51,282 bases of DNA from Reclinomonas americana ATCC 50394 (GCA_048213135.1 PS015098.1:123965-175246), one strand, 5' to 3'; shown: positions 1,423 through 51,282, counted from the first letter of the stretch. Notes: generated by a model not told the origin, from the letters alone. Numbers and translations are program-made.

Positions 1423-4400
1423 ATGGAAGGCTCTGTTACTGTTCTCGCCGACAATGGTCCTCTCATGCGATATGCGACACCAGAGGAGGCGACGATTGTG
1501 GAGTGGTGGGGTGAGTGTCTCACTTGAGAGAGAGAGAGAGAGTGGTGTGTGTGTGAGAGAGAGAGAGTACTGATTGAGGGAGCGCTGTGTGCAGTCAGTG
1601 TGAGAGTGAGGAGTATGTGTGTGCGTAGGGAATGAGAGAGAAGAGAGCACTGAGTGTAAGACATGAATGCCATTTAGTCAATCACTTTCTTTCTCTCTGC
1701 CTCCCTCCCTCTCCCTCTCTACCTCGTGCACTTGTTCTCTCATTGACTCAGTCCCTCGTTGCAGAGTCGCACTCATACACACTCTGCCTTGCACACTCCC
1801 TTCCTCTCTCTCTCTCTCTCAGACACACTCCCTCACTCATTCTCCTTCTCGCCCTCTCCCTCTCCAGTCATTCACTCACTCAGTCCCTCGTTGCACGACA
1901 GTTGCACTCATTCACACTCTGTCTTGCACACTCCCTTCCTCTCTCACTCTCTCTCACAGACACACTCCCTTACTCATTCTCCTTCTCGCCCTCTCCCTCT
2001 CCAGTCATTCGTTCACTCAGTCCCTCGTTGCAGAGTTTGCACTCAAACACTCATACACACTCATCCTTCCTCTCTCTCACAGACACACTCCCTTACTCAT
2101 TCTCCTTCTCACCCTCTCCCCCCCAGTGCTGCGCGGATTCAAGGTGTTCTGCTACCCTGCACGAACGGTGAGTCTGTACACTTCTCTCTCTATGTTCTTC
2201 CTCCCCTCCCTTCACTCACACCCACTCCCTTGCTGACAACAAGGCCCCCGTGTACACCGGTGTCATCTCCCTCCTCGAGTGCACCTCTGTGTGCCGCTCC
2301 TTCCCGCCCGACTTTATCATTTCGCGACCGGAGGAGAAGGGCGGGACGGTGGTGGTGCGTGCGGCCTCGGATGATGAGCGGGAGATGTGGGTGGCCACAC
2401 TGGAGAGTCTGCTGGCGGCGTCGCTGGAGCTGCGTGAGCGAAAGCAGCGGGAGGAGGAGTTGGAGCGCAAGGTGGCCAGGCATCAGGCGAAGATTGCGGA
2501 GGAGTTGCACAAGCAGCAGGTATGGGAGGAGAAGGGGGGAAAGGAGGCAAGGGAAGGGGAGGGAGAGATGTGCTCTCTCGCCACTCCTTGCCGCTCATTT
2601 TGCTCCTCTCCTCGTCCTCGTATCGCATAATCTTTCATCCCGTCTGTTGCCGTGACCAGCAGGGCAGGTGCTCGTGCTCCCCTCATTGCCACCTCGCTAC
2701 ATCGTCGCATCGCATAATCCTTTCACGCACTCGTTGCTCTGTTCTCCTGCTTCGCTCTTCATCAAGAGTTTTTCCGTGCGCTGTGTTGTGGGAATTCTAC
2801 TCATCTGTCACCACATGATCCATTCAACAGCTTGTTATTACTCTGTCGAGTGGCAAACTCGCTTCCGTCCTCTAATGCTCTTCTCGTGCGTTCTGTCATC
2901 CAGCGTCAATATTGCTTGTTGCTTGGTGTTCATTGCCTTCGCCTCCGTGCGCCACCCTGCACCCCTCATTCGCATGGTCTATTCTTCTGCAAGTTGTGCT
3001 GTCGAGCAAGAAGTGTGCCTCTGTGCTGTGGTCGTCAGTTGTCTTCTTGCTCCACATTTGCTCCCTTCTACGAGTTTTTCTGTGCCACCCTTACTCTTTT
3101 CTCCCCCTCCCTTCCCTCTCTCCCCCTGCCCCCTCTCCTTCCCCCTCTCCTTCCCCCTCTCGTTCCCCCTCTCGTTCCCCCTCCCCTTCTCCCTCTCCTT
3201 CCCCCTCTCCTCATCCCCCTCCTTCTCCCTCGCCTCCCCGTTTCCCCCGCAGACCGCCCTTGCCGAAAAGCGCCTCTCCGCCGCCTTTGACGTTGCCATT
3301 CGCGGCGAGTACATCTGGAAGGCCTGCGACCGGAAACCAAAAGAAGTCCGACGATACCTCCGTCTCTCGTCCGACAGAACCAAGCTGCAAGTTGCGCTCT
3401 CTGCTTCCCTCTTCCCTCCCCCATCGCTACTCACCTTTCGAGGCGTGACACAGTGGGGACCATCGCCGAGCAGCATGACGTCGCAGCTGCTGCTGTCCGA
3501 GTGCAAGGCGCTCTTTCGCGGTGTGCAGACGGAAAACATGCGCAACGTGTGCACGCACATTGACGACGACGGCACAAATTGCTTCTCGGTGCTGACGCCC
3601 AAGCGAACACTGGACATTGCGTGCGAGTGCGTGGGAGATGGAAGGCACAGTCGTCCTTGTTTCGCAAGTTTTTCTCANNNNNNNNNNNNNNNNNNNNNNN
3701 NNNNNNNNNNNNNNNNNNNNNNNNNNNNNNNNNNNNNNNNNNNNNNNNNNNNNNNNNNNNNNNNNNNNNNNNNNNNNNNNNNNNNNNNNNNNNNNNNNNN
3801 NNNNNNNNNNNNNNNNNNNNNNNNNNNNNNNNNNNNNNNNNNNNNNNNNNNNNNNNNNNNNNNNNNNNNNNNNNNNNNNNNNNNNNNNNNNNNNNNNNNN
3901 NNNNNNNNNNNNNNNNNNNNNNNNNNNNNNNNNNNNNNNNNNNNNNNNNNNNNNNNNNNNNNNNNNNNNNNNNNNNNNNNNNNNNNNNNNNNNNNNNNNN
4001 NNNNNNNNNNNNNNNNNNNNNNNNNNNNNNNNNNNNNNNNNNNNNNNNNNNNNNNNNNNNNNNNNNNNNNNNNNNNNNNNNNNNNNNNNNNNNNNNNNNN
4101 NNNNNNNNNNNNNNNNNNNNNNNNNNNNNNNNNNNNNNNNNNNNNNNNNNNNNNNNNNNNNNNNNNNNNNNNNNNNNNNNNNNNNNNNNNNNNNNNNNNN
4201 NNNNNNNNNNNNNNNNNNNNNNNNNNNNNNNNNNNNNNNNNNNNNNNNNNNNNNNNNNNNNNNNNNNNNNNNNNNNNNNNNNNNNNNNNNNNNNNNNNNN
4301 NNNNNNNNNNNNNNNNNNNNNNNNNNNNNNNNNNNNNNNNNNNNNNNNNNNNNNNNNNNNNNNNNNNNNNNNNNNNNNNNNNNNNNNNNNNNNNNNNNNN

Positions 4401-5710
4401 NNNNNNNNNNNNNNNNNNNNNNNNNNNNNNNNNNNNNNNNNNNNNNNNNNNNNNNNNNNNNNNNNNNNNNNNNNNNNNNNNNNNNNNNNNNNNNNNNNNN
4501 NNNNNNNNNNNNNNNNNNNNNNNNNNNNNNNNNNNNNNTCTCGGCTCTCCCCCCTCTCTCTCGCTCTCCCCCTCTCGCTCTCCCCTCTCGCTCTCCCCTC
4601 TCTCGCTCTCCCCCTCTCGCTCTCCTTCCCTCTCACTCTCCTTCCCTCTCACTCTCCCCCTGTCGCTCTCTTGCTCACCCCTCTCTCTCCCCATCTCGTC
4701 AGATGCGCTCGACCAGTCGCGATTCGAGGAGGCGAGCAATGCGCTGCATGAGTTGCGTGCGTGTCTCTGCCCATTTCCCCTCTTTTTTCAATGGTCCTGA
4801 CTCTCTGTGGACGGCAGCATGTGCACGGTCCTGTCGAACAACATTCCACTGTTGATCCTCGCCAACAAGATAGACCAGGAAGGCGCGCCGTCGGCGGCCA
4901 TTCTGTCTTCCGCTCTGCGTCTGGATCGCCTGCGCAAGCGACGTGAACACACACTGATTATGACCTCGGCGTTTTTGGCAGGTTGGTGATTGCTCTCCCT
5001 CGTTCCCGTCTCCCTCTTTCCCCTCTCCCGGTTTCTCTTCTCCCTCTTTCCCCTCTCCCTCTTTCCATTCTACACACAGAACAGTTGAGAACAAAGAAAC
5101 CTCACCCTTCTCCGCATTGCGCAGAAAACACATATGTGGCACTCGATTGGATGATTCAGCGCATCAAGATTCAACGACGCACTGTCATGCAAGCCGTCAA
5201 GGAGAGTGCCGTTCGCGGTCTTCACCAGCTGCAGGCCGGTTTCGACATTTCAAAGCCTGCGCCGGCGGTGAACGGAACGGCGACGGCCACCTCTGCCGCT
5301 GCTGCAGCCAGTGGCGCCGCCGACGGGGCTGCAAAGACCAGGAAGCGTGGAGCCACGCTCGCGCAGCGCATGATTGCTGTCGACCAGACCAAGACCGCAA
5401 ACAGTTGCGATGCAGTTTGGGAGGGGAGAGGTAGTCTGGCTCTTGATGTTTACTCTTTTTTTTTATGTCAGCCTCAACACGAGTGCCTGCGTCGGGTGGC
5501 ACGCCGAATCCACTGGCCGCATCCGCCAATGCCCCCGCGCGGGTTCCGGCGCCCGCCACGTCAGCGCTGCCACCACCGCCCTCCGCACCTGCATCGTCAC
5601 GCTGGCCAACCCACCAAGCCTCCGCCGCCACCGCCGCCTCGCCTGCACAGGCACCGGCGTCACCGACTCCGGCACCACCGAGCTCGGCAGTACGCTCGCC
5701 TGTGCGATGA
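1423..5710 (+). CDS. Multi-domain protein: PH domain, charged helix, second (PLC-type) PH domain, Arf/Arl-like small GTPase and Ala/Pro-rich tail
   Basis: Exons: 1423-1510, 2127-2167, 2244-2519 (PH C-terminal helix RAASDDEREMWVATL), 3253-3390, 3454-~3620 (RRYLRLSSDRTKLQW..FSVLTPKRTLDI), gap 3678-4538, 4703-4751 (DALDQSRFEEASNALH), 4818-4981 (IPLLILANKID G4; TSA G5), 5125-5403 (ALDWM C-terminal helix), 5472-5710 with stop. G1-G3 must lie in the gap. Confidence 0.8.
1745..2126 (+). repeat. Three tandem ~125-135 bp units in intron 1 of the PH-Arf gene
   Basis: CTCAGTCCCTCGTTGCA...CAGACACACTCCCT.ACTCATTCTCCTTCTC.CCCTCTCCC..CCAG is repeated three times. Confidence 0.85.
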
Positions 5711-5837: not shown

Positions 5838-6809
5838 TCATCGCCCATTGTCGACCATCAGCGTTGATCCTGCGTGTGTGCGAGGTCAGCAAGGGGAGGG
5901 CGACAAGGAGAAGGAGGCGGAAAACAAGAAGGAGAAAGAAGGACGTACAAGAACAATAGCCACATCACATGAAGGGGGAGGAAGGTCACATCGATGCGTC
6001 ACGCAAATCACGCGACGCGAGAGAGGGAGGCAAAGAGGATGACAGTTGCGTGCGTGTGCGAGAGAGAGATGGAGGTTGCATGAAACGAATAAGAGCAAGA
6101 GGAAGAGAAAGAGGACAAGAAGAGGAAAGAGACGAGTCTTGGGATGAGAATAAAGGAGAGAAACGGGAGGTATAAAAAAGAGGAGGAGCAGATGAGAGAA
6201 AACCCCTCCCGGAACAAGGAGGAAGCGAGAAACGGGAGATCAGGGTGCGCAGTCGTCAGAGGAGAGAGGTAGTGAAAACGACAGAAACCGAGGAGGAGCC
6301 GCAGAACATCCAAAAACAAGAAGGAGAAAGAAGGACGTGTGTCAACAAACCTGGCACCGTCGGCGGTCTGGCCACCCGCATCAACAACGGCAGATGCCTC
6401 TCGCAAAACGCCTCCGTGCCCTCCCACACATGCGGAACGGCCAGCCATCGCCTTTCCCCTCCAGCAGTCGACGACGACGACGCCACAGAAGCTACTCTCC
6501 TCTGCTGCGCACGCTTTCCCTTGCCAGACTTGCCTCCACCCTGCTGCTGTTGCGGAGCTGCTGCTGCTGCTGCTACTGGCGACGACGACGAGGCAGAAGA
6601 AGAAGGCGGAGGTGGTGGAGAAGACGAGCTCTCCCTCGCTCCCTCCTGCGTCGACGACAACTCCTCGCCGCACGTCTGACACACCAAATGAATCGACTCC
6701 AGCGATGGCGATGCCCAGGCCCATCGTCGTGAGGTGGTCTCCAGGTGCTGGCTCAGCACTGAGGGAGTGATGGCGCGTGCGGGTGGCAGTGTTCGTGGTT
6801 CCACTGAGG

Positions 6810-6850
<41 letters not shown>

Positions 6851-7282
6851 GAGGAGGAGGAAGGAAGGGAAGGAGGAGGAGGAGGGAGGGAGGAAGGAAN
6901 NNNNNNNNNNNNNNNNNNNNNNNNNNNNNNNNNNNNNNNNNNNNNNNNNNNNNNNNNNNNNNNNNNNNNNNNNNNNNNNNNNNNNNNNNNNNNNNNNNNN
7001 NNNNNNNNNNNNTCTCTCTCTCCTTATCCTCCTCCTCCTCTCTCTCTCTTTCTCTCTCTCTCACTCACAAACTGAAACACCAACGTCGCGGCCATCGACA
7101 CGGCCACCACGAGCGCGGGAGCAGACAGAAGGCCAAGAGGAGCAACACACCCAGTGCTGCAGAGAGGGAGAGAAGCACAACAGTGGCGGAGATGCCGGCC
7201 AGGTCTCCTCCTGTTGTTTCCATTTGTCAAGTGAGAAGTGAGAGGGGACAGACCCATTGTCAACTTCGACTTCGTCATGCAT
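5838..7282 (-). CDS. Uncharacterised spliced protein with CxxC ... CxxH motif and a low-complexity insert; start uncertain
   Basis: Donor GTGAGT at 7068. Exon 6803-6351 encodes ..LVCQTCGEEL..RRWLAVPHVWEGTEAFCERHLP... Donor GTTTGT follows, then terminal exon 5869-5838. A gap at 6900-7012 may hide sequence, and the frame of exon 1 is ambiguous. Confidence 0.4.
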
Positions 7283-7657
7283 GCAGCTGCTGCTGTCTTT
7301 CTTATCGTTCTTAACTCGTGAAACGCTGTTCGCCTTTGTAATATACATCAAATTCGCGCGCGCGCCTTGCTGTGACAACCCTGTGGGCTTATAACGTTAA
7401 CCGTCGGCAAGGGATTTGTGGACATTTGTCGCATTTGGAATGCGGTGTATGAAGTGTTTTGTTTGTTTAGTGCCCTTCGCCCTTGACTCCAGATCTTGCA
7501 ATTGACACTTGTACACGTGACGTCGACTGTTGACCCTTATAATTAGCTTAGCAGAGCAACTATCGGAAGTCAAGCTCGGTCAAACCGAAGACGCATGCAC
7601 AAGAATCATTGTACAATATCGATGGTGGTGCAGATACAAAGGTCAAAGAGTCAAGGA

Positions 7658-7927
7658 TTATGGTGCACGTGGCTCTTGCTTGACATCGTCCTTGTTTTGC
7701 AGAGTACCTGCCGCGCTACCGTGAGGACTCAGTGGCGTTGTGTTGGTAGCTCCGCCCACGCGCATGGCGTCTGTGGCTGCAGCAGTAGGAGAAACATGTG
7801 TCAGAGCCGATCGTGACGACGAGGCAACGGCAATCGTATTTCGCAACTCAATCTGGTGATGTTTCTTGGCCGCCTTGCGGCGGCCGCAGTTGTCGCGACG
7901 AAAACGACCTCCGATGATTGCAACGGA

Positions 7928-7961
<34 letters not shown>

Positions 7962-10770
7962 GTGGTGGTGGTGGTGGTGATGATGGGGACAACCGAAGAG
8001 GCTGAGCGGTGGCAGAGGCAATGGAATCCGCAGCGAGCGCAGCAGGTTGATCCTGTGAATAGGAGAGTGTCAGAAAATTGAAGCAGCTTACAGCACAGCA
8101 GTCACAAAGCACCTTTTCGCTTGATACGCCCAAGCCATCGTTCGAGCGCCGCCGTTTCTTCGGTGGGCCGTCATCGCCACCGACAAGACCATCTCGTTGG
8201 TCCACTGTCCGCTTGTCGCCAGTATGCGGTTCCCCATTACTCATTTCCGCAGCCGCAGTATCGACGGGGGGAGCAGCCGCCGACTCTGCCGTTGGCGCGT
8301 GGCTGGTTGCGCGCCGACGCTTGACAGCAGCTTCTGACGGCGGCCGTTCTTCACCTGGGGGAGTTGTCATGGACGCCGCTGACTCTGCCGTTGGCGCGTG
8401 GCTGGTTGCGCGCCGACGCTTGACAGCACCTTCTGACGGCGGCCGTTCTTCACCTGGGGGAGTTGTCATGGAAGCCGCTGACTCTGCCGTTGGCGCGTGG
8501 CTGGTTGCGCGCCGACTCTTGACAGCAGCTTCTGACGGCGGCCGTTCTTCACCTGGGGGAGTCGTCATGGTTGTGGAGACAGAGTGCGGTCTCTTGCGAC
8601 CCCTCTCATCCGCAGACGGCGCCGCGGCTGGACGCTTTCCAGTTGCCTGCAAGGTGCAGCGAGCGATAAGTAGCGAATGGTGCAACGCGAAGCACATGCA
8701 CACGTACCGAGCGTCGCGGTCGAGGAGATGCCGCAGCACTTATTTCTACATCTCGCACTGGCAGTGAGATATTAACGTTAGAGACAACGCACGCGTTGTG
8801 TACAGTTGTATACTTACCAGTTGGGGAGACGGAGTGCGAGGCAGCGAGGAAGCGAGAATCGGCTGAGCAGCTGCTATGGCAGCAGTTGGCGCCGACTTCT
8901 GCCGTGACAAACACAGCGAACACATATCAGCGACACGCGAAAACCATCAGTGGTGACAACACATTTGTGCGCACGAACCGTACGACGGGATGAGCTGACA
9001 CGAATGTCTGCAGCATATCGAAACCATCAACACACTTCTTGGCATGACTCATAACGAAAAGCAACACCCACCCAGTTCACCGCTTTGTGGAGTCGAGTTG
9101 CTGGCTTGTTCGACGCTGCTTGCAGTTCTCCTTGTGCGTGGGGAGGCGAGTGGCGGCACCACAGCGACTGAATCCGATAGAGGTGGCGATGCCTGTGGTG
9201 GAGAAGTAAGGAACAAATGCTGCACAGACAGAATCTCCAGCATGACGCACCTCCTGGCGCCGCTGCCTAGGCCTGTACCGAGTACCGTTCTCCTGCACAG
9301 CAGCCACTCCTCCAGCCGGCGGCGGCGGGGGCGGCGAAATCGACGGCAATGACGATGGTGGAGGAGGCTGTGACGCGCATATTCAATGAGATTTCAGTAC
9401 GACCAAGCCACACAACGATAACGTTGTCGGTGTACACTTACGGTTGGTAGTCTTCGCATCTCTCTTGTCGCCCTGTCAGTTACCGGTGGTGCAGGATCGA
9501 TGGCTGATCTGCTGGAAACAACGATACGTTATAAAGAAATCGTGCAAGGCGGGCCCGGGGGTGGCCACCGTAACTTGGTTCCGCGACGACTGCTTGACGG
9601 TGGGGAATCACTCTCAGACTGCTTCGCTGCCGGCGGTGATGACGGGGCGGCGGCAGTTGCAGTCTTGGAAGACAGTTTCGCGGCAGCCGGCGATTGTGGA
9701 GCGGCAGCAGTTGGGCGAGTTGCTGCTGCGGGAACCCCCTTGGTCACATGCGGAGATGTCTGAGCGTCTACCGCGGGGCGAGTTCGTGCATTTGAAGGCT
9801 GTCGGAGTGCCACTCTTGCCGCGAGTGCTGGCGGCGGTGGTGGTGGTGGCGATGGCTGTCGTCTTGGGGGTGCTGGCGGCGGGCGTCGTCCTGGATCCGG
9901 AGGCGGAGGTGGTGGTGGTGGTGGTGGCGGCGGTGGCTACGGGGAGCAGGACCAGGCGACTTCAGTACCGGCGATCATTCAATTGCAAGCAGACTCATGT
10001 CAGCTTGTACTCACCAAAGTCGGCGGAGCTGGATGAGGCTGCGCAGTGATTGCACCACCGGCTGTGTCGACGTCTCGCCTGAGTAGCCAGACAACCAGCA
10101 CCACTGCTTGCACCACATACTGCACAGTGAACAGGATTGCAGCAAGGAACACAGAGTACGGCGCGGTGTTGGTGACAAGCAGGTTTCCAAAGACCGAGGC
10201 ACCGGCAGACAACATCAGTATCAACGCAGGGCGTTGCACGAGCCTTTGCACGTTTCCAGCCAACAATCGCAAACGAAGCCGTTGCAGCACCGGCAACAAG
10301 CACAAGAGGCGGACTCCAACCACGTTCATGACAAGCAGCACAAGCGCGCCTGCAACTACCGCCCATCCATCGGCGATGACCTCATATGCATGCAGTCCTC
10401 GCACTATCGCAGTCAACAGTATCCAAACGATGTATCCGCACAGCACTGAGTACGCGATCAGTTTGTCAACAGCATCCAGCTGCCACAACCACGCGCGTGT
10501 GCGACGTGCAACAGCATGCAGCACATCTCTCAGTAAGTAAAACAAGAATGTCACCCCCACCGCGATGGCGAGGAGCAGGTAATAAGGGAGCAATGCGACA
10601 TGTTTCTGCAACATCCAACCCACGAAAAAAACACGGGAGAGAGAGAGAAAGAGAGTCAGGAAAAATGCATGATCTGGTCGGTTATTGTGACATGTGCACG
10701 CAAGCAAGCTCACCGCCAGTGTGATGCAGACTCTTAACGTCCTCCTCACGATCGACTTGGTTGCCTCCAT
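7658..10770 (-). CDS. Tandem paralog A: N-terminal multi-pass membrane domain plus long Pro/Ser/Ala-rich disordered region with NLS-like motifs and C-terminal VKQEP
   Basis: About 12 exons from MEATKSIVRRTLRVCITLA through WQLDAVDKLIAYSVL and hydrophobic segments, then KRPAA..RKRP and PPKKRRR, to ..NKDDVKQEPRAP*. Exon structure is largely shared with paralog B. One apparent 1-nt homopolymer deletion at about 8823-8826. Confidence 0.7.
8276..8570 (-). repeat. Three exonic tandem copies of a 99-bp (33-aa) unit
   Basis: The anchor GACTCTGCCG occurs at 8282, 8381 and 8480. The unit encodes MTTPPGEERPPSEAAVK(R/S)RRATSHAPTAESAAS. Paralog B has a single copy. Confidence 0.95.
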
Positions 10771-10967: not shown

Positions 10968-13870
10968 TCATGGTGGCTCTTGCTTGACAACGTCCTTGTT
11001 TTGCAGATGTCTTGCCGCGCGACCGTGAGGACTCAGTGGCGTAGTGTTGGTGGCTCCGCTCACGCGCATGGAGTCTGTGACTGCAGCGGCAGGAGAAAAC
11101 ATGTGTCAGAGACAATCGTTGCGACGACGACGGATCTACTTCTGAGGGGTTTTCGCAACTTTGTCTGCTCATGTTTCCTGGCTGCAGACCTGCGGCGGCA
11201 GCAACAGCAGCCGCAGTTGTCGCGACAACTAAGACCTCAACCTCCTCCAAAGGATGGGACGCAGGCGGTGGTGGTGGTGGTGGTGGTGGCAATGGAGGCG
11301 ATGCATGGTAGTGAGCGATGGCAGAGGCAGTGGAATCCGCAGCAGGCTGATCCTGTGAACGGGAGCAGGTCACAGCAATGAAGAAGCTTCCAGCACGGCA
11401 GTCAGGAAGCACCTCTTCGTTGGAGACGCCCGAGCCACCATTCGAGCGCCGCCGTTTCTCCGGTGGGCCGCCATCGCCGCTGACGCTTGCAAGACCATCA
11501 CGTTGGTCCACTGTCCGCTTGTCACCAGCATGCGGTCCCGACTCGTGGGAAGCATGCGGGTGGAAGCCATTACTCGCTTCCGCACCGACAGCATCGACGA
11601 GTGGAGCAGCCGCCGACTCTGCTGTTGACGAGCGCCTGGTTGTGCGCCGACGATTGACGGCAGCTTCCGACGGCGACCGATCTTCACCTGGAGGAGTCGT
11701 CGCGGATGTGGAGACAGAGTGTGGTCGCTTGCGACCCCTCTCATCCGCAAGCGACGCCGCGGCTGGACGCTTTCCAGTTGTCTGCGGGCGAGAGATAAGC
11801 AGCTGACGACACTACGCGTAGCAAAGTGCACCCGTACCGAGCGTCGCGGCCGAGGAGATGCCGCAGCTCCTGCTCCTGCAAGTCGCACATGGAGTGAGAG
11901 ACATCGGAGTCGCGCATGCGTTGTGCAAAGTTGTATACCCACCGGTTGGGGGAGACGGAGTGCGAGGCAGCGAGGGCGCAGGGACCGGCTGTTCTGTTGC
12001 CGTGGTTGCAGTTGGCGCCGACCTCTGCCGTGGGGGAGAACACATCAGCGACAAGTGACCATTGCCAATGGTGATCAGATATATCTGTGTGCACACGAAC
12101 CGTACGACGAGATGGACTGACACGGTAGTCTGCTGCCAGCTCGAAACAATAAGCACACTTGTTGGCATTACTCACAACGCAAAGCAAGACGCACCCGGTT
12201 CACCGCTCTGCGGAGTCGAATCGCTTGCTTGTTCGCTGCTGCTTGCGGTTCTCCTTGTGCGTGAACAGTGAGGCATTCATATGCGATCGCGCGACGAAAG
12301 AAGCGAGGCAGCGAAACTTGTTGCGATGCCGAGACTGCGGCAGCTGCTTGTCGCCGTTGTTGATCGGCGGCTCGGAACCACCATTCGAGGACGGTGACGA
12401 CGACGGTACTCCACTGCTCGTTGTCTTCTTGACAGCAGGCAGCGTGGACGGCGGAGCAGCAGCAGTCGAAGAAGTCCGCTTCACCGCAGGCAGCGAAGGT
12501 GGCGCTGGCGAAGCCACAGCAGAAGCTCTTCCAGCCGGCGGTGGTGGGGGAGGCGGCGAGGACGACGGCGATGACAATGGAGGCGACTGTCAACTTTGAC
12601 GATTAGAGTGGAGAGCGATGAAGCGAGGACATGCTGCGGGCTTCTGCTCACCGTACGCTGCTTTTGTCGCCCCCGACGCGTTGTTTTAGTAGTTGACGGT
12701 GCAGCGTCGGAGGCAGATCTGTCGCAACCGGTGAGGCATGAGATCGCGCGATGAAAGAAGCGAGGCAGCGAAACTTGTCGCGATGTCGAGACCGCGGCAG
12801 CTGCTTGTCGCCGTTGTTGATCGGCGGCTCGGAACCACCATTCGAGGACGGTGAGCCGCCGCTAGCAGCCGGGCGCGACGACGGTACTCCACTGCTCGTT
12901 GTCTTCTTGACAGCAGGAAACGTGGACGGCGGAGCAGCAGCAGTCGAAGAAGTCCGCTTCACCGCAGGCAGCAACGGTGGCGCTGGCGAAGCCACAGCGG
13001 GATGCATCGGCGGCGGTGGCGGCGGTGGCGGCGGCGGCGGTGGATTGATGACAGGCAATGGCGCATTGTTGACATTCCGCTGAGCATTGGTCGCAGACCG
13101 AAGCACCCGCGGTACCGGTTGTGGAGGAGGCGACGGAGGACGTGGCCGCGCTTCGGCTGCAGCGACAAACTCCTGATTCGCCACCACTCGCACACCAGCG
13201 CCGTCTCGCATGACGAACAACACCACTGGCAACACCGCCAGCACGACAAACAGCACGGCGAGCACGATCGAGTACGACGCGATGCCTGCGACAAGCATAT
13301 TTCCGCAGCTCAGCGCCACAATCACCGCCGGTCGCAGGAGTCTCCTCTGCGTGTCTCCCTGCAAAAGACGCGCCCGTTGCTGCTGCATGACAGGCACACG
13401 ACACAGAAGCCGACCGATCGCCACGCACACCACAGGCATGGCCAGTGAGGTCGCCGTGGTCACCAACACATCACTGATATCATCACGTGCAGCCGGTGTC
13501 ATGAGCGACTGCAACATGCTCCACGCGAGGTACCCAAAGAGCACAGAGTACGCGATCAGCTTGTCCACTGCGTCCAGCTGCCACCACGCGCCAGTGCCTT
13601 GTGCGAGTCTTCCCAGCGCGAGTGTAACGTTCGCAGCCTGTGCCACCAGTGCTCTCCAGACCGCTTTCAGCGATCTTCCCATGAGGAGAGTCACATGCGC
13701 TCCAGCAGACACGACGCGGAGCAGAAGGTGGAGTGTGAGTGACCACGCGCGCGCCTGCAACACACCATGAGTGGAAAGAGTGTCACTGACACTGCATGCA
13801 ACAATGAACGCACTGCGAGTGTGATGCACGCGCGCATCGCTCGAGTCAGTCTCGACTTGATCGCCTCCAT
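10968..13870 (-). CDS. Tandem paralog B of the multi-TM plus disordered NLS protein
   Basis: MEAIKSRLTRAMRACITLA|ARAW..WQLDAVDKLIAYSVLFGY..KRPAA..RKRP..PPEKRRR..NKDVVKQEPP*. About 11 exons join in frame. Clear nucleotide similarity to 7658-10770. Confidence 0.75.
12285..12998 (-). repeat. Internal ~240 bp duplication of an exon plus its splice donor in paralog B
   Basis: About 12745-12998 and 12285-12520 are near-identical: AVASPAPP.LPAVKRTSS...RHR.K followed by GTTTCGCTGCCTCGCTTC. Confidence 0.9.
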
Positions 13871-20824: not shown

Positions 20825-23800
20825 ATGGGCAACGCCGGTTGCGTCTCTCTCTCGCCCCTGCTCCTCCTCCTCCTACCAATCTTCATCTCACATCCACACA
20901 GCCTCCACCGCCTCCTCCTCACCACCATCCTCCTCACCTCCTCTCCCTCCACCTCTCCCGCCTCCACCACCACCACCTCCACCTCTCACCGAACCCGCCG
21001 ACGAGATCCTCCTCGCCACCGTCGACCCCGCCGCGCTCCTCCCCGCGCCCTCTCACAGCGAGCCTCCTCCTCGCATCGACGCAGCAGACGCCCTCCACGC
21101 GCTCTTCCCTGCGGCCTCCGACTCGCGCGAACAGTACCGCCTGCGCGAGGTCATGGTCGCCGCGCACCTCAGCGCAGCCGCCTATCACGTCGACTGCGCG
21201 GTCGGCGTGCGCGGAGGCCCGCTGAGTGTGTCGGCGTTCTCGGCCCGGCGAGTGCTGGAGTCGCGCGGGCTGTTGCGCAGTGTGAGGGCCGTGCAGAGGG
21301 TGTCGTTGTCGCGATATCAGCAGGGATCGTCGTCGTTTGAGGGCGAGGATAGTGAGGATGAGGGTGAGTTGATGTCGTCGCCGTCGAGTGCGGATGCGTG
21401 GCCGTTTGGGCCGCCGTTGTTGCAGCGCGTGCAGGTTACGATTGCTGAGGCGCCGCAGGTGGGTGAAGGGGGGAGGAGGGAGAAGAGTATTTTTACTCAG
21501 TTGTCGCGTTTGTCGGGCTCACGTTCTTCTTCTCCTTCTTGCTCCTGTCCTTCTCTTCGTGCCTTCTTCATTGTTGCTCCTCGTCTTCGTTAGCGTTGCC
21601 TTCTTCATCCTTCTCTTGGTCTTGGTGTTCTGGCACCTTCTCCTTCTTGCTCCTGTCCCTCTCCGCTCCTCTTTCTTATTGTTGTTCTTCGTGGCTTCTT
21701 CATCCTTTTTCTTGTTCCTCTCCTTCCTTCGTTGTTCTTCTTGCCTTCTTCATCCTTTTCCTTGTTTCTCTCCTTCTCTTCGTTGCTCTTCTTGACGTCT
21801 TGCTTCTCCACCTTGTTCTTGCCCATCCGCGCTCGTGTTTCTTCTCCTTCTTGTTCCTCCCCTTCTCCTTCTCTTTCTCCTCCTTGTTCCTCGCCTGCTG
21901 CGTTTTCCTCGCCTTCTCCTTTCTTTGTGATTCATCTTGCCTCATTCACCTTCTCCTCCTTCTTCTTGTTCCTCCCGTCTCCTGCCTTCTCCTCGTTATT
22001 CTTCCTGCCTTGCTTATTCTTGTTGTTCTTCTCACTCTCTTCTTGTTCCTCCTTCTCTTTTTCTTTGTGATTCATCTTGCCTTCGTCGTCTTCTCTTCCT
22101 TCTCCCGCTCCACGTCCTCCTCCGTCATCTTCTTCTTCATTTCTTCGTTGCTCCTCTTCTCCTTTTCTTCGTGATTCTTCTTACCTTCTTCTTCCTTTCC
22201 TTCTTCTTCTCTCCTTGTTTTTCTCTGTTCCACCTCCTTGTTCTTCATTCTCCTCCTTTGTCCTCTTCTTCTTTTTCTCTCCTCGTCCTTATCCTCACTC
22301 CCCTCCCCTTCCCCCTTAATCCCCCCTCTCAGTTCTGCATGCTGGCGGAGGACCCGGAGACCCTGTACGTGTGCTTCAAGGGCACCTCGCTCTCCGACGC
22401 CGCCGACATTGTGGCCAACGCGCGCCGCGTCGCCATCCCCTTCCCCGGCCTGCGCAACGTGCTTGTGCACGAGGGCTACTATGCGCGCGCCAAGACCATG
22501 CAGATTCGCGAGATTGTCGACCGGGCGCGCCGCACGCGCCGCCGTCTCGTCTTTTGCGGCCACTCGCTGGGCGGAGCAGTGGCGGCGCTGGTGGCGCTGC
22601 GCGTCATTACCGAGGCACGGGTGGGCTCGCCGAATCACATTGCGTGCTACACGTTTGGTGCGCCGCTCTTTGTGGCCGCGGACTCGGTGCCGGCGATGCT
22701 GGAGCGACGGCTCGACAATATCTTCTTCAACTTTGCCATGGAGGGCGATTGGATTCCGTTCTGCCACATGCGACTCAACGAGGCGCTTGGTGGGGTGGTG
22801 AGTGGGTGGGAGGGGAAGGGGGAAGGGGGAAGAGGGGGAAGAGGGATGATTGGCACGATTCTCTTTGCTTGACCGCTCTCATTGCTCACTTGTCGCTCCA
22901 CTCGTTTTCTTTCTCTCACTCTCTGACTCTCGCAATATGTCTCTCTGTTTCTCCCTCTTTCTCCCTCTCACTTTCCTTTTGTTGCATTTTCTCTTTCTTT
23001 TTTTCTCTCACTCGCTTGAATCCCCTCCGCTTTCAATGTGATTCGAAGTTGCTCTCCCTCCTGCACTCCTCATGCTTGCTTTCTTTCTCTGTTTCCGTTT
23101 CCGCTGTCCTGACGATTTCTTCTCTTACCCTCTTTCTCTCGCTCTCCTCAAACTCTCTTTCTCTCTCTCTCTCTCTGTCTGTCTTTCTCGCCTCATTTCA
23201 TCTCTCTCACTGTCCTCGGTATCGCTTTCGTTCTTTTTCTTGCTGTCTCTCTCTCTCCTCGTTCTCACTTTCGCTGTCTCTCCCCTTCCACCTTTTCCCT
23301 CCTCTCTCTCACTCCCTCCTTCCCTCTCCCTCGCCTCCTCTCTCTCTCTCCCTCTCTCCCTCCCTCCCTCTCTTCCTCCCTCTCTTCCGCCCTCCCTCCC
23401 TCCCTCTCACTCCCTCCCTCCCTCCCTCCCTCCCTCTCACTCTGTCTTTCTCTCTTCCACCTACAGGCAGCCTCGCTGGTGCAACAGTACGCGTCGCCGT
23501 GGGACTGCCTGATGATCGGGCAAGACGGGTGCACGCGCATGTATCCTCGGGACATCTTCAGCCAGGCGGCGCCACCGTTCCCGGTGAGTGCCGAGTGGCA
23601 TCGCGCCGTCCTGTATCGGGAGCGATTGGACTCGGTGGTGCGCAGTTACACGCCGCTGCCGAGTGCCTCGCTCGACAGCTTTGACAATTACGGAACGCTG
23701 CCGGGCACGCTATTCCGTGGACTCTCGTGGATCGAGCAGACCGTGTCGCCCACGTCGCCCACTGCCGTCACACTCGGTACAACAGCGGCAGCACCAAGCG

Positions 23801-33138: not shown

Positions 33139-36100
33139 TGTCGTGGGGAGGCGACAATCTGCGCAACATGCCCGACAAGGAGCACTTGCCGGAGGTGCTG
33201 CCGATTGTGCAAAAGTCCACCGTCTTCAAGGTTTGTGCTAGCAGTGTCGCGAGATCTTCAGCAGAACGCAATTGGCTGACTGTGTGATGATCAGTACCGG
33301 TACGCGTGGAACACGTGCACCTTTGGCTACAGCTCCGTCTTCTGGTCGTGGAATCGGTGGGAGCGCGAGATCGACTGGATGGCCCTGCACGGTTCCGCTC
33401 GATTGCGTTGCCGTGCTGTTGTTGTTTCGCGTTTATGCTCACCGCCTTGTCGCAGGCATCAATTTCCCGCTGGCCCTGATCGGTCAGGAGTACGTGTGGC
33501 TGCAGGTTCGCTGACGCGCTGCTCCTTCGTGTCAACTGGCTGGTGTGTTTCTCACCTGTTGTGACACAAGGTGTGGGAGTCCCTCGGCCTCAACGCCACG
33601 GATGTTGTCTCCGAGTTTTACAGTGGCCCTGCATTCCTTCCATGGTTCGTGGAGGGGTTGATCGGGTTGCATGAGCGTTGTATGCACTCATTTGGCTCGC
33701 AGGCATCGCATGGGCAATCTGAACGGCTGGATGTCGCCGCTCACCGACAACTGGCTCACCGGTCAGCGTGATCTGCAGCTGAAGATCCTGCAGCGCTTCC
33801 GTGCGTTCGGCATGAAGCCGATCCTCGGCGGCTTTGCCGGTCACGTGCCGAAGAGTCTGTCGCTGAAGTACCCGCAAGCGAACATCACGCAGGTAACAGC
33901 AGGCTTCTGGAGTAATAGACGCATTCTATCTTTCCGCTGCCTTTGCCACTTTCGTGCCTTCCTCTCTTTCACTCACTCTGTGTGTACTGTAATCAGCTCC
34001 TCACTCTTGTTTTGCCATTCATCGAGTATCGTCTTCTGTCATCCATGATCGTCAATCTCTCCTGCATCTCTCTTCCTGCATATCTCTCACTCTGTCTCAC
34101 TCTCCTTCTCTGCATTCCTCTCACTCTTGTGACATCATCTTCTCCGCGTGTCTTCCTCTGCCCTCTCTCAGTCTCAGGCTCCTTCTGCCTCTCTCTCGCA
34201 CATCTGAGCATCTATTTCACTCTCTCCTCTCCTTTCTCCAATCAGCAGCTTCCTCTCCACGTGGTCTTCACTCGCTCTCTGCCTTCTCTCACACTCAGGT
34301 CTTTCTCAGCATATTGGCTTTGGCGCGTGATCTTCACTTTCTTGAACTCCTTGGTTTTGCTCTGCTGCTTCCTCTCCCGTCTCCCTTCTTCTCTCTTCTT
34401 CTCTTCTTCCTGTCCCCTCTCCCCTCCCTTCTCCTTCTCCCTTCTCATCCTCCCTTCCCCTTCCCTCCTCTCACGCAGCTGGCGGAATGGGCCGACTTTG
34501 AGGGCACCTACTTCCTCAGCCCCACCGATCCGCTCTTCCAGACCATTGGGCGCACATTCATTGCCAAGCAGACTGAGATCTTTGGCACCGATCACTATTA
34601 CTCGGCCGATCCCTTCAATGAGGTGCGTAGAGGATGAAAGAGAGATGCGGGGTACATGCTTTTTCTCATCGCCTCCTCAACAGCTGGAGCCAAGCAGCAA
34701 CGACCCGACGTACTTGCGCAACGTGGGCAGCTCGATCTACAACGCCATGGCGTCGTCGGATCCACAGGCCGTGTGGGTGATGCAGGCGTGGTACGTGGGG
34801 GGAGGCACTTGACCGATCATCCCTCCCGACTGCCGCTCACTTGCACCGTGACGCACAGGTTCCTGGAAAATGAGGCCGACTGGTGGCAGCCGCCGCAAGC
34901 AGAGGCGATTTTGACGAGCGTGGTGCGTTGCTCCTCCCTTCTCTCTCTCTCCCCCTCGCCGCCTTCAGATTCTTCTTCTTCTCATGCGCTCCTCCCGCAG
35001 CCTGGCGACAAGCTGCTCATGCTCGATCTGTGGTCCGAGGTGGCTCCAGTGTACACGACCACGAAGAATTTCTACGGCAAGCCGTTCATTTGGAACATGC
35101 TGCACAAGTTGCGCCATCGCACTCGCATCACTCCCTCTCCTCACCACTGATCTCAACGCACTCGACAGCTTTGGCGGCCGCTCCGGACTGTATGGACGCA
35201 TGAACCAAGTCAATGTTGGTCCCGCCACCGCCATTGGCACGCAAGAGAGTAATGTCGTTGGTATTGGCATGACACCGGAGGCGATTGAGACGAATCCGGT
35301 GCGTCGTATCCGATCTTTTCCGTGCCCGCTTGTTGTTGCTCATCATCTTCGGCAGGTCATGTACTCACTGCTCACCGATCACATCTGGCACTGGCGACCG
35401 TTCGATCTGGAGGACTGGGTCACCAAGTACCCGCTGCGTCGCTACGGCATCAACGACCTCAACCTGCAACTGGCCTGGCGCCTGCTGGCATCGTCGGCCT
35501 ACGATTGCCCCACTGGGCAGCAGGGCACGACGGACTCTATCGGTGCGCTGCTGGTCATTTTCCACTGCTGCTGCGAGGCTTCTCTCGTCCCTCACTCGAT
35601 GTTCACAGTCGCCTTCCGACCCTCCATCTCCATCACCGGCGCGACTCTTTACTACGACACATCGCTGGTCAGCGACGCCGCGCAGTTGTTGGTCGCTGCT
35701 CGTTCGCAGCTGGCCGGTCTGCCGACTTACGAGTTTGATGTGGTTTCGTGTGCGAGTCCGCCAGCCTCCGCTCGTCGCCTCGTACTCATGTCTCTTTCTC
35801 TGCGCAGGTTTCCGTCGGCGTTCAAGTGCTAAAGTGCGTTGACCAGCTCGATTATCCCTCACTCTGTTGTTGTTGGTCTCATTCACCTCTCCCCACGTAT
35901 CGCAGCAACCAGGCAGTCGTCGAATACCAGAACATGGTCAAGGCCGTCAACGCTGGCGACGGCAATCAGTTCTCGGTGGCCGCCGCCGAATTCCTCTCTC
36001 TTGTCGACGACATTGAATCGGTGCTGGCGAGCAACAGCTTCTTCTCACTCGACAACTGGTTTCGTCATCTTGCTCCCTCTCTCTCTTCTCTTACGTGCTC

Positions 36101-36596
36101 GTGCGTCAGTCCTCATTCCTTTTCGTCGCCACTTGTAGGTTGCTGAGTGCACGTCAGTGGGCCACAAACGCTGCTGAGCGTGTGCAGTACGAGCTGAACG
36201 CCCGCACGCAGCTGACGTTGTGGGGACCGTCGGACTCACCGCTGCACGACTACGCCTACAAGCTGTGGTCCGGTCTCGTCAGCGTTGCGTCACATGCTTG
36301 CACAACGTGGCAGCAGCTGTTGTTGTTTTTATTTGCTGACTGCCCGATGACAGACCTTTTATCGCCCGCGATGGGCGCTGTTCATCAGTCGCATGCAGCA
36401 AGCTCTGGATTCGCGCCAGCCGTTCGACGACAAGGCATTCACGCGCGACGTCGAGGCCCTCGAGTTGGCATGGACGAAGCGATTGAGTGCCAACGAGATG
36501 CCGCGCGTTGTCGATAACGCGAGTGAGGACAGCTTGTCGTCGCGCAAGTCGGCTGCCGATGTGCTGCACAAGATTTTCACCGCCCGCTCTCTGTAG
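33139..36596 (+). CDS. NAGLU: Alpha-N-acetylglucosaminidase (GH89), 5'-partial, 16 visible exons
   Basis: [124 protein letters not shown]. Confidence 0.96.
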
Positions 36597-39700: not shown

Positions 39701-40068
39701 ACTCTTCCCTTTCGCTCGCGCACGTGCACTTGTCCGCTCCACTCTTCTCCGCACGCAACTCTCATGGCCTCCTCCTCCTCCTCCGCCACCTTTCTCCGCT
39801 CCAAATCCCGTTGCAACGGCGTCTTACCACCCTGCAGTCCCGTAATCACACGCTCCGCCTCGCGCCCACCCACCGGAGGCTCCAGCGCACGAATCGCAGT
39901 CGCAGCAGGCTGACGCGGAGTGCGCATCACCATGGCCGCCCCGACGACCACTGGCGACTCAATCGTGTTCTCCTGAAACGAAAAGTTGTTGCGTGCAGGC
40001 GACGTGCGCGACGGCGACTTGTGCATGCCGCGACTGAATCGCCCAGGCTTCACTGTGGCGCTGTACAT
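36757..40068 (-). CDS. Large disordered SP/TP-rich protein with C-terminal coiled coil and single TM (tail-anchored); 5' exons tentative
   Basis: The last exon encodes KIETALARREEAAASLLSLVEAYEAENRQMRALVRRQ then WATVIPLFAIIVWLLVQFMSLRRTEFL*. Upstream in-frame exons lie at about 38542-38271, 38196-37095 (two short introns) and 40068-39760. Confidence 0.6.
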
Positions 40069-41063: not shown

Positions 41064-41103
<40 letters not shown>

Positions 41104-41112
41104 GTGTGTGTG

Positions 41113-41175
<63 letters not shown>

Positions 41176-41186
41176 GTTGTGCACAG

Positions 41187-47005: not shown

Positions 47006-48921
47006 ATGGGCTGCGTTAGTGGCAAACCTGTAATGGCCAGTGCTGGCACACAATCCAACGAGCCGCACCACGCCAGCTCGCCCGTCCAACGAGAGCGCAT
47101 CATTGTCCCGACTGCTGCAGTTCTCAATGCCGTCGCCGCCGGCAGACAAACCCGACAGGCACAACAACAGCAACAGCAACAACAGCAGCAGCAACAACAG
47201 TTGCAAGAGCACGTTCATCAGCGTCGTCGTCGTGGCAGCGTGGCCAAGGACAATGATGTCGAGGACAACAACAACAACAGGTTGACGCGACACAAGACGG
47301 TGGCGGCCTTGGTGACGACAACGTCGACTCCGCGTGGGAGCAGTAGCCGTGTGGGCAGGACACTTTCGTTGCGTTGGCAGGGACGGAGGCGGTTGGAGAA
47401 GTGTTTTGTTTGTTCCGTCTGCATGTATGTGTCGTGGGCGGAAAGCGAGGTGAACTGCAGCACTCACATCTTGTTGTTGTTGTGTGTGCAGTGATGTGAA
47501 GGCCATTAGCAAGTGCGCGTCATCTCCGTTGCGTCTGGGTGTCAGTGTGACGATCATCTCTCTTGAAAAGGCAATCTCTGTCTCCCTGCAGCGAGCTTGT
47601 TCGAATGCGCCCCTTCTCAGCCTCACTCCTCTTACTCTCGCACCTCTTCCTCATAAGTCTCAGTTCGGAAAGACTGCTGCTTGTCCCTTTTCTCAGTCGC
47701 TTCTTGTTCAGATGCTCCTCGTTGTCGATTCTGCCTCAGCCTCCCTTCTTTCTCTTGCACCACTGTGCCTGTTCCTCCTCAGCCTCTGTTCAGACAGACT
47801 GCTGCTTGTCCCTTCCTCAGTCGCTTCTTGCTCAGATGCTCCTCGTTGTCGATTCTGCCTCAGCCTCTCTTCTTTCTCTTGCACCACTGTGCCTCTTCCT
47901 CCTCAGTCTCTGTTCAGATAGACCACTCTCTGTCCCTTCCCCCCCCCCTTCTCAGCCCACCCCTTATTTCTCTCGTCTGCGTCCCTGCTTTCTCTCTGTT
48001 CAGGGACACCGCTGTCTGCCCCCTCAACAGTCGCTCTTTGTCATTCTCCTGTTGAAATGCTTCTCTGTCCCCCTTCCCAGCCCCTTTCTTTTATTCTCTC
48101 GCACTTCCCTCCTCAGTCACTCTTCAGATAGACTGCTGCCTGTCCCTTCCTCAGTGGCTCCTTGTTCCGATGCTCCTCTACGTATTCTCTCGCACCTCTG
48201 CACCTCTTCCTGTTCAGATGCACTGTGTCGTCTCCATGTTCAATGTACATTCCCCTTTCCCTTCCCCCTTCTCCCTTCTCCTTTTCCTCCCTTCCCCTTC
48301 CCCTATTCCCTTTCCCTCACTCCCTCCCCCTTTCTCCCCCTCCAGTGTGCGCAACAGAAAACGTGGCACCAGCAGCGGCGACTGTTACGCACCCTCCGTG
48401 GTCTCCATGGCCGGCAGCAGCACCGTCACCAGCAGCCAGCTGACGCCAAAGACCGGCAAGCGCAGCGGCGACGGCAGCAGTGGCACGCAGAACCTCGACG
48501 CGTCGTACTCGGACAGCGTGCCGACCTCGGTGGACGAGAGCAGCACCGTGGATATGAACGGATCGGCGCCGCAGTTGACCTCGCGCCGTCCGTCGCTAAT
48601 CGTGGCCGACATTGCGCGACGCATGCGGTCAGTCTTCTTCTATTGATTGTATTCTCCTGCTCGACAGGGTGCTGACTGTGTGTTGCATGGCAGACCGATG
48701 GCACAGCGCACCATGTCGGTCTCGGATCTGTCGTCGTTGGTGTCGAGCAAGGTGTGGCACGCTTACCGTTCTGCTCGTCTTCTCCCTCTCTGTCGTCCTC
48801 ACAAGCAAATCTCCTTGGACAGAGTCTCTGCTCTCCCGGCGTGCAACGATGCATGGCGGCGGACGAAATGTCGTCGGCACGGGCGAGTCCGTCGGCATTC
48901 CGGGCGGTGAACAGTGTTTAA
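47006..48921 (+). CDS. Disordered protein with an MGC dual-acylation start, polyQ and several basophilic kinase sites
   Basis: Exons 47006-47367, 47492-47512, 48346-48627, 48694-48751 and ~48822-48921. Start MGCVSGK. Sites RRRRGS, RKRGTS, RRPS and RTMS. The last exon is uncertain. Confidence 0.6.
47672..47920. repeat. Two tandem ~125 bp intronic copies
   Basis: GACTGCTGCTTGTCCCTT..CTCAGTCGCTTCTTG.TCAGATGCTCCTCGTTGTCGATTCTGCCTCAGCCTC is duplicated. Confidence 0.9.
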
Positions 48922-48934
48922 CTTTCTTTTCGTG

Positions 48935-49970
<1,036 letters not shown>

Positions 49971-50150: not shown

Positions 50151-51282
50151 TCAGTTTCCTGCACGCTTGTCTTGCAACTTCAGGAGGAAGTAGCCGAGAA
50201 TACGGAAGAACATGTACAGCGCAATCAGAATGACGGCACACTTCCACAGTTGCTCGCCCTGCGATGAAGAGGCATCGGTAAGTAAGTTGGTGAGCTGAGC
50301 GCTGAACAGTCACCGTCGACACTCACCAAGAATCCGAGCGCAGCCAGGTGCGTGTCGCCCGAGAAGGTCTTGCAGAGGCCCTTGGAGACCTCGGCCGGAG
50401 TGCAGATGAACGGCACACTGGTGGTGGTGGTGGTGTTGATGTGAGAGAAGGTTCGACGCGCGTGCATGAAGAAACAAGCAGGCTTACCCAGTGAACTCGT
50501 TGACGACCATGGCCTCGAACGCCCATCGCACAAACGAAATGTAGGTAATCTGTTTGCGCAGCCGTCATGTCAGTACGAGAAGGGGAGAGGAGGTAATCAC
50601 CCTCTCCTCCTCCCTTCTCTTCTCCATCTTTCTCTCCTCCTTCTCCTTGTCCTCCATTCTCTAACTCCATCCCCCCGTCGCGATTCCTGTCTCCGTGTCT
50701 GTTCTCTCCTCGCCCCGCCCCTTTCTATATCTCCTCGCTGACGATCGACACGCACCCAGCGCAACCAGACGGGAATCTATTGGTGGAAATCGCAGGTGAG
50801 TACAAGCAAGAAGGAGGAGGGGGAGGAAGACAAGTGAACAACGAAACGGTTTCGGTGTTGGCGAAGAAACCGGCGTAGCTGTGTCGTAGAGCGCAGACGG
50901 GGTGAGTGAGATGGTCGTCAACAGGAAAGAGCAAGAGCTGCGACGGGGTTTCGACGCACAGCACAAACACGACGACCTGTGTGTAACAGCAGCAGGTGAG
51001 TTTACAACCAAATCAGTCTTCTCAAATGCGGGGACAACGCACCGCCAGTGGTGCCAGGGCCGTGCCGATGGAGATGTTGGTGACGGCGGCCGAGATGGCG
51101 ATACCGAGTGCTAGCGCGACGTGGAAGAGCAACACGTAGAAGCCGATGAAAATGAAGAACGAGGAAGCCTGTGGCAAGGCATGTTAGTACAACATCAGCA
51201 CGAGACGATGACAGTCATGGAGGCACGCACCTCGCCACGCAGGCCAGCCATCCAGTACTGCACAGTGCCGAGGTGAGAAAAA
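50151..51282 (-). CDS. ABCG/White-family ABC transporter, C-terminal membrane domain (5' part outside the window)
   Basis: Spliced product YWMAGLRGE|ASSFFIFIGFYVLL..LAPLA|VVVFVL|YAGFFANTET|IPVWLRW|ITYISFVRWAFEAMVVNEFTG|VPFIC..C..FSGD..LGFL|GEQLWKCAVILIALYMFFRILGYFLL..*, a textbook ABC2-type membrane domain. Confidence 0.92.

Follow-up and report, generated by a model that had tools for sequence, protein, structure and literature searches.

GTT-N-CG splice donors as a frequent class in a Reclinomonas americana scaffold, possibly read with one U unpaired

Genomic context

The DNA considered here, termed the window, is a stretch of 51,282 bases from Reclinomonas americana ATCC 50394 (GCA_048213135.1 PS015098.1:123965-175246), an intron-rich eukaryotic scaffold in gapped draft form, with 9 N runs amounting to 3,541 N in total and a G+C content of ~57% once the gaps are excluded. 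Its ordinary 5' splice sites (donors) typically carry CG at the fourth and fifth intron positions (+4 and +5), and a second class carries T at +3 and CG one base later, at +5 and +6 (GTT-N-CG, hereafter GTTNCG). This second class is real, frequent in the window and tied to its extra T. It was described in an initial annotation, which listed about 18 donors with the ordinary motif placed one base later and suggested that the lineage may use shifted or bulged donor recognition as a routine. All 18 strings are present at their positions (the coordinate of a minus-strand site being the first G of the donor), and their standing as donors differs considerably from site to site.

The gene content was derived from Pfam searches on 254 of the 458 stop-to-stop open reading frames (ORFs) of at least 60 amino acids (aa), picked by sequence complexity. 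These searches revealed a PH domain and an Arf-like gene on the plus strand, three WD40 genes, RPL39 on the minus strand, a class-3 lipase gene on the plus strand and NAGLU, also on the plus strand, at 33.2-36.6 kilobases (kb). The tail of a probable ABCG-type transporter gene, on the minus strand at the end of the window, was recognised after the ORF-wide Pfam pass. In a library of 1.8 billion proteins the closest NAGLU relatives are just 44-49% identical, and therefore neither a close relative nor an existing annotation was available as a guide to the window. The two genes that carry the main evidence and all sites of the initial list are collected in Table 1, with lengths in nucleotides (nt).

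Table 1. Genes and listed donor sites of the window, with the evidence bearing on each
Feature	Position	Strand	Remarks
NAGLU gene, part	33231..36596	+	15 introns; stop codon ends at 36596; Pfam NAGLU and NAGLU_C matches on ORFs
GTTCCGC donor (NAGLU)	33392..33398	+	64-nt intron to 33455, phase 1; best of 22 in-frame alternatives, margin 11.3 bits
GTTGCGC donor (NAGLU)	35108..35114	+	61-nt intron to 35168, phase 2; best of 14, margin 8.9 bits
GTTTCGT donor (NAGLU)	35743..35749	+	65-nt intron to 35807, phase 0, then a 26-nt exon; best of 32, margin 6.8 bits
GTTTCGT donor (NAGLU)	36059..36065	+	80-nt intron to 36138, phase 2; best of 43, margin 13.5 bits
GTTGCGT donor (NAGLU)	36284..36290	+	70-nt intron to 36353, phase 0; best of 38, margin 6.6 bits
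ABCG-type transporter gene, C-terminal part	50151..51257	-	8 exons, 7 introns; clean 160-aa frame to the stop
GTTTCGT donor (ABCG)	50841..50847	-	71-nt intron to 50777, phase 0; sole in-frame, stop-free GT-AG choice
GTTGCGA donor, paralogue copy A	7841..7847	-	71-nt intron to 7777; moderate support
GTTGCGA donor, paralogue copy B	11153..11159	-	79-nt intron to 11081; not independent of 7847
GTTGCGT donor, Arf-like gene	4752..4758	+	66-nt intron to 4817; probable
GTTACGG, claimed donor	9568..9574	-	Not supported; exon end 11 nt off its paralogous counterpart 12774; homologous bases in different frames
GTTTCGC, claimed donor	12768..12774	-	Paralogous to 9574; duplicated at 12317 through a 457-478-nt internal repeat
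GTTTCGC, claimed donor	12311..12317	-	Duplicate of 12774
GTTGCGC, claimed donor	3391..3397	+	63-nt in-frame intron claimed; read-through open, no intron forced
GTTGCGA, claimed donor	5404..5410	+	Frame runs on without an intron; downstream exon of low complexity
GTTGCGT, claimed donor, lipase gene	20838..20844	+	After a 13-nt first exon; 64-nt intron to 20901 would join frames; start at ATG 21153 needs none
GTTGAGT, claimed donor	30014..30020	+	Gene finder pick with a 565-nt intron; gene without homologue
GTTGCGT, claimed donor	47368..47374	+	Only distant acceptors fit; no homology
GTTGCGT, claimed donor	39753..39759	-	No convincing acceptor or downstream frame

Donors of the NAGLU and ABCG genes

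Spliced according to the 15-intron model, the NAGLU gene part encodes 616 aa. This product reaches 792 bits against a hidden Markov model (HMM) of 30 homologues, with which it aligns colinearly over positions 123-712, and the TIM-barrel and C-terminal domains recognised by Pfam confirm the identity of the gene. Its donors read, in order, GTTTGT, GTTCCG, GTTCGC, GTTCGT, GTAACA, GTGCGT, GTACGT, GTGCGT, GTTGCG, GTGCGT, GTGCGC, GTTTCG, GTGCGT, GTTTCG and GTTGCG. For 14 introns, every in-frame, stop-free GT-AG or GC-AG combination lying up to 75 nt away on either side, 379 in all with those of the model among them, was scored against the 30-homologue profile. The model junction was top-scoring at all 14, and the five GTTNCG donors outscored every in-frame alternative by margins of 6.6-13.5 bits. 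The first intron, at 33231, is placed by a weak HMM match (E 0.57) together with a gene finder.

The second-best donors at 35108 and 36284 are GC dinucleotides 3 nt downstream (35111 and 36287). They score 8.9 and 6.6 bits lower, respectively, and would insert a residue absent from the NAGLU family, and a GC-AG reading of these two GTTGCG sites was thus rejected; no further GT lies within the intron at 35108, and the next GT at 36284 is 10.8 bits lower. At 35743, a GT 3 nt upstream falls 8.5 bits below the model junction. A shared origin of the five GTT introns, for example as introners, was likewise rejected, as the introns compared by eye show no resemblance past the donor. Intron lengths in NAGLU (33231-36353) are tightly clustered, 14 of 15 measuring 57-80 nt and one 586 nt, and a 26-nt internal exon at 35808-35833 (plus strand) is required for colinearity with the family.

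The donors of the ABCG tail, on the minus strand, are GTGCGT at 51230, 51042, 50959 and 50755, GTTTCG at 50847, GTAAGC at 50487 and GTGAGT at 50326. Two exons give weak Pfam matches to ABC2_membrane in the correct order (profile positions 129-168, E 0.017, and 193-211, E 0.04; 15.1 and 13.9 bits against a cut-off of 26.9 bits), and the remainder of the gene lies beyond the window. Between these anchors the model places 24 residues for 24 profile positions, a stretch that crosses four introns including the one at 50847, where the two GC alternatives would remove 5 or 9 residues. The assignment of five listed sites to NAGLU and one to ABCG in the initial annotation was therefore correct, as judged from the homologue HMM in the former gene and, for the probable ABCG gene, from the sub-threshold ABC2_membrane matches and the frame. 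Six of the seven ABCG introns (50259-51230) measure 62-81 nt and one 206 nt, and tiny exons at 50960-50976 (minus strand, 17 nt) and 50756-50776 (minus strand, 21 nt) are required for colinearity with the family.

All 22 introns of NAGLU and ABCG are GT-AG, and their removal restores colinear proteins, as in U2-type splicing. U12-type introns are marked by the donor motif [AG]TATCCTT with a matching branch box, and this donor motif is absent from all 24 supported donor strings of the census described below.

It is very improbable that these junctions were mis-modelled, with other nearby donors in actual use, or that the extra T is an assembly artefact. Such errors would be in keeping with the 9 N runs of the draft, with the GTGCG string found 5-8 nt downstream of 4752, 35743 and 39759, and with the lack of firm support for 11 to 12 of the 18 listed sites. 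A GTTGCG at 18708 (minus strand) points the same way: it occurs in the string GTTGCGCTC, enclosed by the 536-nt second intron of RPL39 (18258-18793, minus strand; donor GTGAGT), and was rejected as a donor, which shows that the hexamer alone does not mark one. At the six firm sites (33392, 35108, 35743, 36059, 36284 and 50847), however, all in-frame alternatives score lower or remove conserved residues, and the neighbouring GTGCG strings are out of phase. In addition, GTTGCGAAA is shared by both copies of a paralogous pair, and a one-base error at the same position in six donors is not credible.

Census and positional statistics of supported donors

Donors backed by homology or by a forced frame number 24, comprising 15 in NAGLU (14 junction-tested and the first on its weak match), 7 in ABCG (4 bracketed by the Pfam test and 3 on frame continuity) and 1 each in RPL39 and a WD40 gene, the last two judged by eye. 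This census excludes the paralogue family, the Arf-like gene, the lipase gene and genes without homologues. GTTNCG accounts for 6 of the 24, compared with 88 of the 5,885 GT sites in the window (1.5%; p 1.2e-6). T at +3 occurs in 9 of the 24, compared with 1,109 of all GT sites (18.8%; p 0.025), and NCG follows in 6 of these 9 GTT donors, compared with 88 of the 1,109 GTT sites in the window (7.9%; p 1.7e-5).

The position of the CG element separates the two classes. CG stands at +4+5 in 10 of the 15 non-GTT donors and in 2 of the 9 GTT donors, whereas at +5+6 it is found in none of the former and in 6 of the latter (Fisher p 0.0015 for offset versus T at +3). None of the 24 supported donors has CG at +3+4 or +6+7. 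Equally, none is of the form GT[ACG]NCG, even though the 350 hexamers of that form in the window are four times commoner than the 88 GTTNCG (p 6.6e-5 for all six donors carrying T). Because CG at +5+6 is restricted to GTT donors, the class is tied to the extra T. The initial annotation had named a failure to exceed intronic composition as refuting its idea; this comparison was run, and C at +5 and G at +6 do exceed that composition. Ordinary donors, represented by the 12 with CG at +4+5 in NAGLU and ABCG, share the extended consensus GT-N-CG-T-N-G, in which the +3 base varies (G in 9, T in 2, A in 1) and the G at +8 lies outside any canonical pair with the U1 small nuclear RNA (snRNA).

These figures bear on an explanation that involves no shift at all, in which +3 is free in this lineage, GTT donors do without G at +5, and CG at +5+6 comes from CpG-rich intron starts. 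T at +3 is indeed common among the supported donors, three GTT donors retain G at +5 (GTTTGT, GTTCGC and GTTCGT), GTTNCG lacks a window-wide excess (see below), and the Entamoeba consensus GTTTGT, as given in the available text of PMC4053983, illustrates that T at +3 can be normal. Within intron cores the frequency of CpG is only 4.7-6.6%, yet CG falls exactly at +5+6 in 6 of the 9 GTT donors and in none at +6+7 to +8+9, far beyond the share of NCG among GTT sites of the window. The positional data and the homology tests make this explanation improbable, and mis-modelling even more so.

Three further approaches gave no usable evidence. A motif-blind GT-AG gene finder found all 15 NAGLU introns after training on them, but self-training made it drift, and it is unable to part in-phase donors that lie 3-9 nt from each other; a local scan performed no better, and neither is used as evidence here. 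The noise of this gene finder also meant that the total of roughly 90 introns given in the initial annotation was not reproduced. An enrichment test anchored on acceptors missed its positive control, GTGCGT (9 observed versus 5.5 expected), and its null result for GTTNCG is accordingly uninformative.

Pairing register and competing explanations

Six junctions fixed by protein homology in two unrelated genes support a reading in which the register of donor recognition is displaced. GUU-N-CG(U) represents a genuine and frequent U2-type GT-AG donor class, making up roughly a quarter of supported introns beside the main class GU-N-CG-U, and with a probability of about 0.5 it is read with one U unpaired; slippage or looping-out of a U where the donor pairs with U1 is the interpretation that fits best. 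Either the U at +2 or that at +3 would be left unpaired, whether looped out or mismatched, while its neighbour pairs with the A of U1, and N-C-G-U would occupy the places of +3 to +6 in ordinary donors. The slip would arise initially during pairing with the 5' end of U1, as the register known as 'bulge +2/+3' or as a near equivalent shifted by one, and it may recur with the U6 ACAGAGA box, while cleavage would remain at the first GU. A bulge on either of two identical U's, or pairing of the +3 U in place of the +2 U, predicts that the extra base is always T. In all six firm sites, U is found at both +2 and +3 and the downstream CG motif is displaced by one base.

Pairing of this kind with U1 and U6, as well as its tolerance by some snRNA or protein, is predicted from the sequence. 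Pairs were counted with a canonical U1 5' end, for which the complement of the consensus oligo in PMC4856993 was used (the host's own U1 may differ). The five NAGLU sites average 4.0 pairs in the normal register and 5.8 in a bulged or shifted one, compared with 6.7 for the ten other NAGLU donors.

Several observations weigh against this reading. Bulging or shifting brings a real but small gain in pairs, calculated for a U1 end like the human one; the main consensus itself has a mismatch to that end at +4, and the bulged and shifted registers are indistinguishable by count (5.8 versus 5.8 pairs). GTTNCG shows no window-wide excess (88 seen versus 85-92 expected under Markov models), while GTGCGT is over-represented (67 versus 31-36 expected). 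The initial description of the same motif placed one base later holds for CG, which is displaced by exactly one base, and fails further downstream: T at +7 is found in 4 of the 6 GTTNCG donors, which does not stand out from intron composition (p 0.12), and the G present at +8 in 10 of the 12 ordinary CG donors (p 4.5e-6 versus 20% G) does not move along, since only one of the six GTTNCG donors has G at +9, and likewise only one has it at +8. This difference between the classes means that the longer motif is not simply slid by one base. The original count of 18 was raised by paralogous copies, and about half of the sites are without confirmation. The p-values are post hoc, having been computed on the introns that prompted the idea, and the six firm sites lie in two genes only. 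Moreover, Rfam detected no U1, U6 or U5 snRNA gene in the window, with no family at threshold and 12 weak matches at E 0.5 that include no snRNA.

A close relative of the bulge is the shifted (+1) register, in which the intron part pairs one base later, leaving the +2 U mismatched; it yields as many pairs here as the bulge model does. According to Roca and Krainer (2009), this register reportedly favours C-A before the donor G (C at -2, A at -1). Such an exon end is not seen here, the -1 bases of the six firm sites being G, A, G, G, C and C, with A in 1 of 6.

Instead of a slip, the U1 5' end itself may be altered, or a second U1 variant may carry an extra base opposite the second U, such that GUU-N-CG-U pairs continuously and each class is served by a different or re-tuned snRNA. 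The main consensus GT-N-CG-T-N-G is a poor fit to the canonical U1 end, with C at +4 in 12 of the 24 supported donors and the G at +8 noted above, as a changed snRNA would predict. The varied +3 base of ordinary donors favours tolerance over exact pairing, the window contains no snRNA gene recognised by Rfam, and few known RNA stretches are as conserved as the 5' end of U1, all of which leave this explanation unlikely. For the atypical GTGCGTG consensus of Ostreococcus, a change in snRNA has been raised as a possibility, in the available text of PMC2483917.

It is also conceivable that the CG(T) element is read by U6 or by an early-complex protein (U1C or a LUC7-type factor) that tolerates a one- or two-base spacing after GU, with U1 pairing weak for all donors. 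This would accord with the 6-8 of 11 pairs that even ordinary donors form with the canonical U1 end, with the G at +8 that fits no canonical pair, and with the difference between the classes at +8/+9, by which they may not share one rigid helix. The obligatory T as the first spacer base (no GT[ACG]NCG among the 24) is left unexplained, and a reader other than U1 is accordingly regarded as doubtful.

Beyond the looped-out or slipped U at individual sites, a one-base-displaced register might be constitutive in the lineage, affecting about a quarter of introns and accompanied by re-tuned machinery, either a 5' end of U1, or an additional U1 variant, that suits both GU-N-CG-U-N-G and GUU-N-CG-U, or a U1C/LUC7-type factor stabilising the looped-out U. 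This broader proposal is tentative and, on present evidence, unlikely. If displaced reading is true, an organism with a quarter of its donors in displaced form would be a natural system for studying the limits of spliceosome register freedom, and could show how cleavage holds at the first GU while pairing slips and whether snRNAs or U1 proteins have changed to permit a slipped register. Gene finders trained on G at +5 would misplace many exon ends in this genome.

Other listed donor sites

Of the 18 shifted donors initially proposed, the six firm sites are well supported. Six others (3391, 5404, 20838, 30014, 47368 and 39759) have no homology by which a junction could be fixed and are candidates only. 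The sites 7847 and 11159 belong to two tandem paralogues at 7650-13740 (minus strand), each ~3.1-3.3 kb long and sharing 77% mean column identity in a two-copy alignment, which contain Pro/Thr/Ala-rich low-complexity coding sequence with 99-nt internal repeats and, in copy B, an internal duplication of 457-478 nt. Between the copies, conservation extends to the donor, the acceptor and a CTGAC element resembling a branch site; although the intron lengths differ by 8 nt, homology of the flanking peptides is kept in one frame. Substitutions are spread evenly over the codon positions (31, 33 and 36 of ~166 each), so coding constraint is not demonstrated and support for this pair is graded as moderate; one or both paralogues may be under little constraint. 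The sites 9574, 12774 and 12317 are copies of one doubtful site rather than independent donors.

The donor at 4752 is probable, since read-through meets a stop and an intron is thereby forced. An in-phase GT 9 nt downstream (4761), which would add 3 residues, is a possible alternative. The Pfam Arf match is limited to the exon downstream of 4752, and the short exon ahead of it is not supported by Pfam. At 3391, Pfam found no match on either flank or in the whole stretch.

The base before the donor also differs among the listed sites. A at -1, often as CAA|GTT, occurs in 10 of the 17 GTTNCG sites of the initial list and in 10 of 70 other GTTNCG sites (Fisher p 3.6e-4; 0.006 without the paralogous copies). 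Given its occurrence in 1 of 6 firm sites, this preference may reflect how the sites were picked.

Other features and searches

Searches with other proteins of the window returned generic or no matches. A metagenome scan with a WD40 protein gave matches of at most 36% identity, a homologue search with an ABCG exon gave none, and a WD40 exon matched 296 proteins at E <= 1e-8, all generic WD40, with every named one among the 120 matches listed being bacterial. Searches of the PDB with short exons found no match, and one further search returned generic WD40 matches only. An ORF at 24020-24547 (plus strand) shows weak P-loop matches (AAA_16 and ABC_tran, E 8e-5 to 5e-3) and no PDB match; with only these weak AAA/ABC matches, it was rejected as the ABCG gene meant in the initial annotation, which is the minus-strand gene at the window end.

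Simple repeats, including GAA/GGA runs, (CA)n and CT-rich tracts, are abundant (20330-20545, 40100-41300, 48800-49100 and many intergenic stretches) and led to false genes in the gene finder and false acceptors in the acceptor test. Sub-threshold matches to several unrelated plant and animal microRNA (miRNA)-precursor models occur on both strands at 31175-31340 and 6789-7068, beside N gaps, and these are probably hairpin-forming inverted or simple repeats and not genes.

Comparison with known systems

In the limited literature collection searched, no report was found of a lineage with GTT-displaced donors as a major class. Partial parallels come from Entamoeba, Ostreococcus lucimarinus and human cells. 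Entamoeba genomes are AT-rich, compared with ~57% G+C outside the gaps of this window. Entamoeba introns have the extended 5' consensus GTTTGT (PMC4053983), which resembles the present class in having T at +3 as a normal, lineage-wide donor feature. According to the available text of that study, Entamoeba keeps G at +5, unlike the GTTNCG donors, and no shift is implied. Ostreococcus lucimarinus possesses an atypical and strong GTGCGTG donor consensus (4.8 bits) in an intron-poor genome (PMC2483917), and the likeness lies in a G+C-rich genome whose main consensus has C at +4 and G at +5. The accessible part of that report does not mention a GTT-shifted class, and the present window differs in being intron-rich, with 15 introns in 3.4 kb of NAGLU.

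The nearest counterpart is the human bulge +2/+3 register, sites of which were reportedly described by Roca et al. in 2012, a work known here through Tan et al. 2016. As in the present donors, GU is followed by a second U, the motif lies one base later, either U can stay unpaired, and cleavage takes place at the first GU. In the available text of Tan et al. 2016 (PMC4856993), 'bulge +2/+3' accounts for 68 and the +3 bulge for 51 of 201,541 human 5' splice sites, all validated non-canonical registers together amount to 1.5% and the +2/+3 bulge to 0.03%, and bulged and shifted U1 registers are proven in human cells through suppressor-U1 experiments. This tiny human class contrasts with 6 of 24 supported donors here, and the carried motif is A-A-G-U in human and N-C-G-U in this window, where it is known from sequence alone. 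The donor class is thus new as a major class, while the kind of site, a non-canonical register, is already known from human cells, where it is rare.

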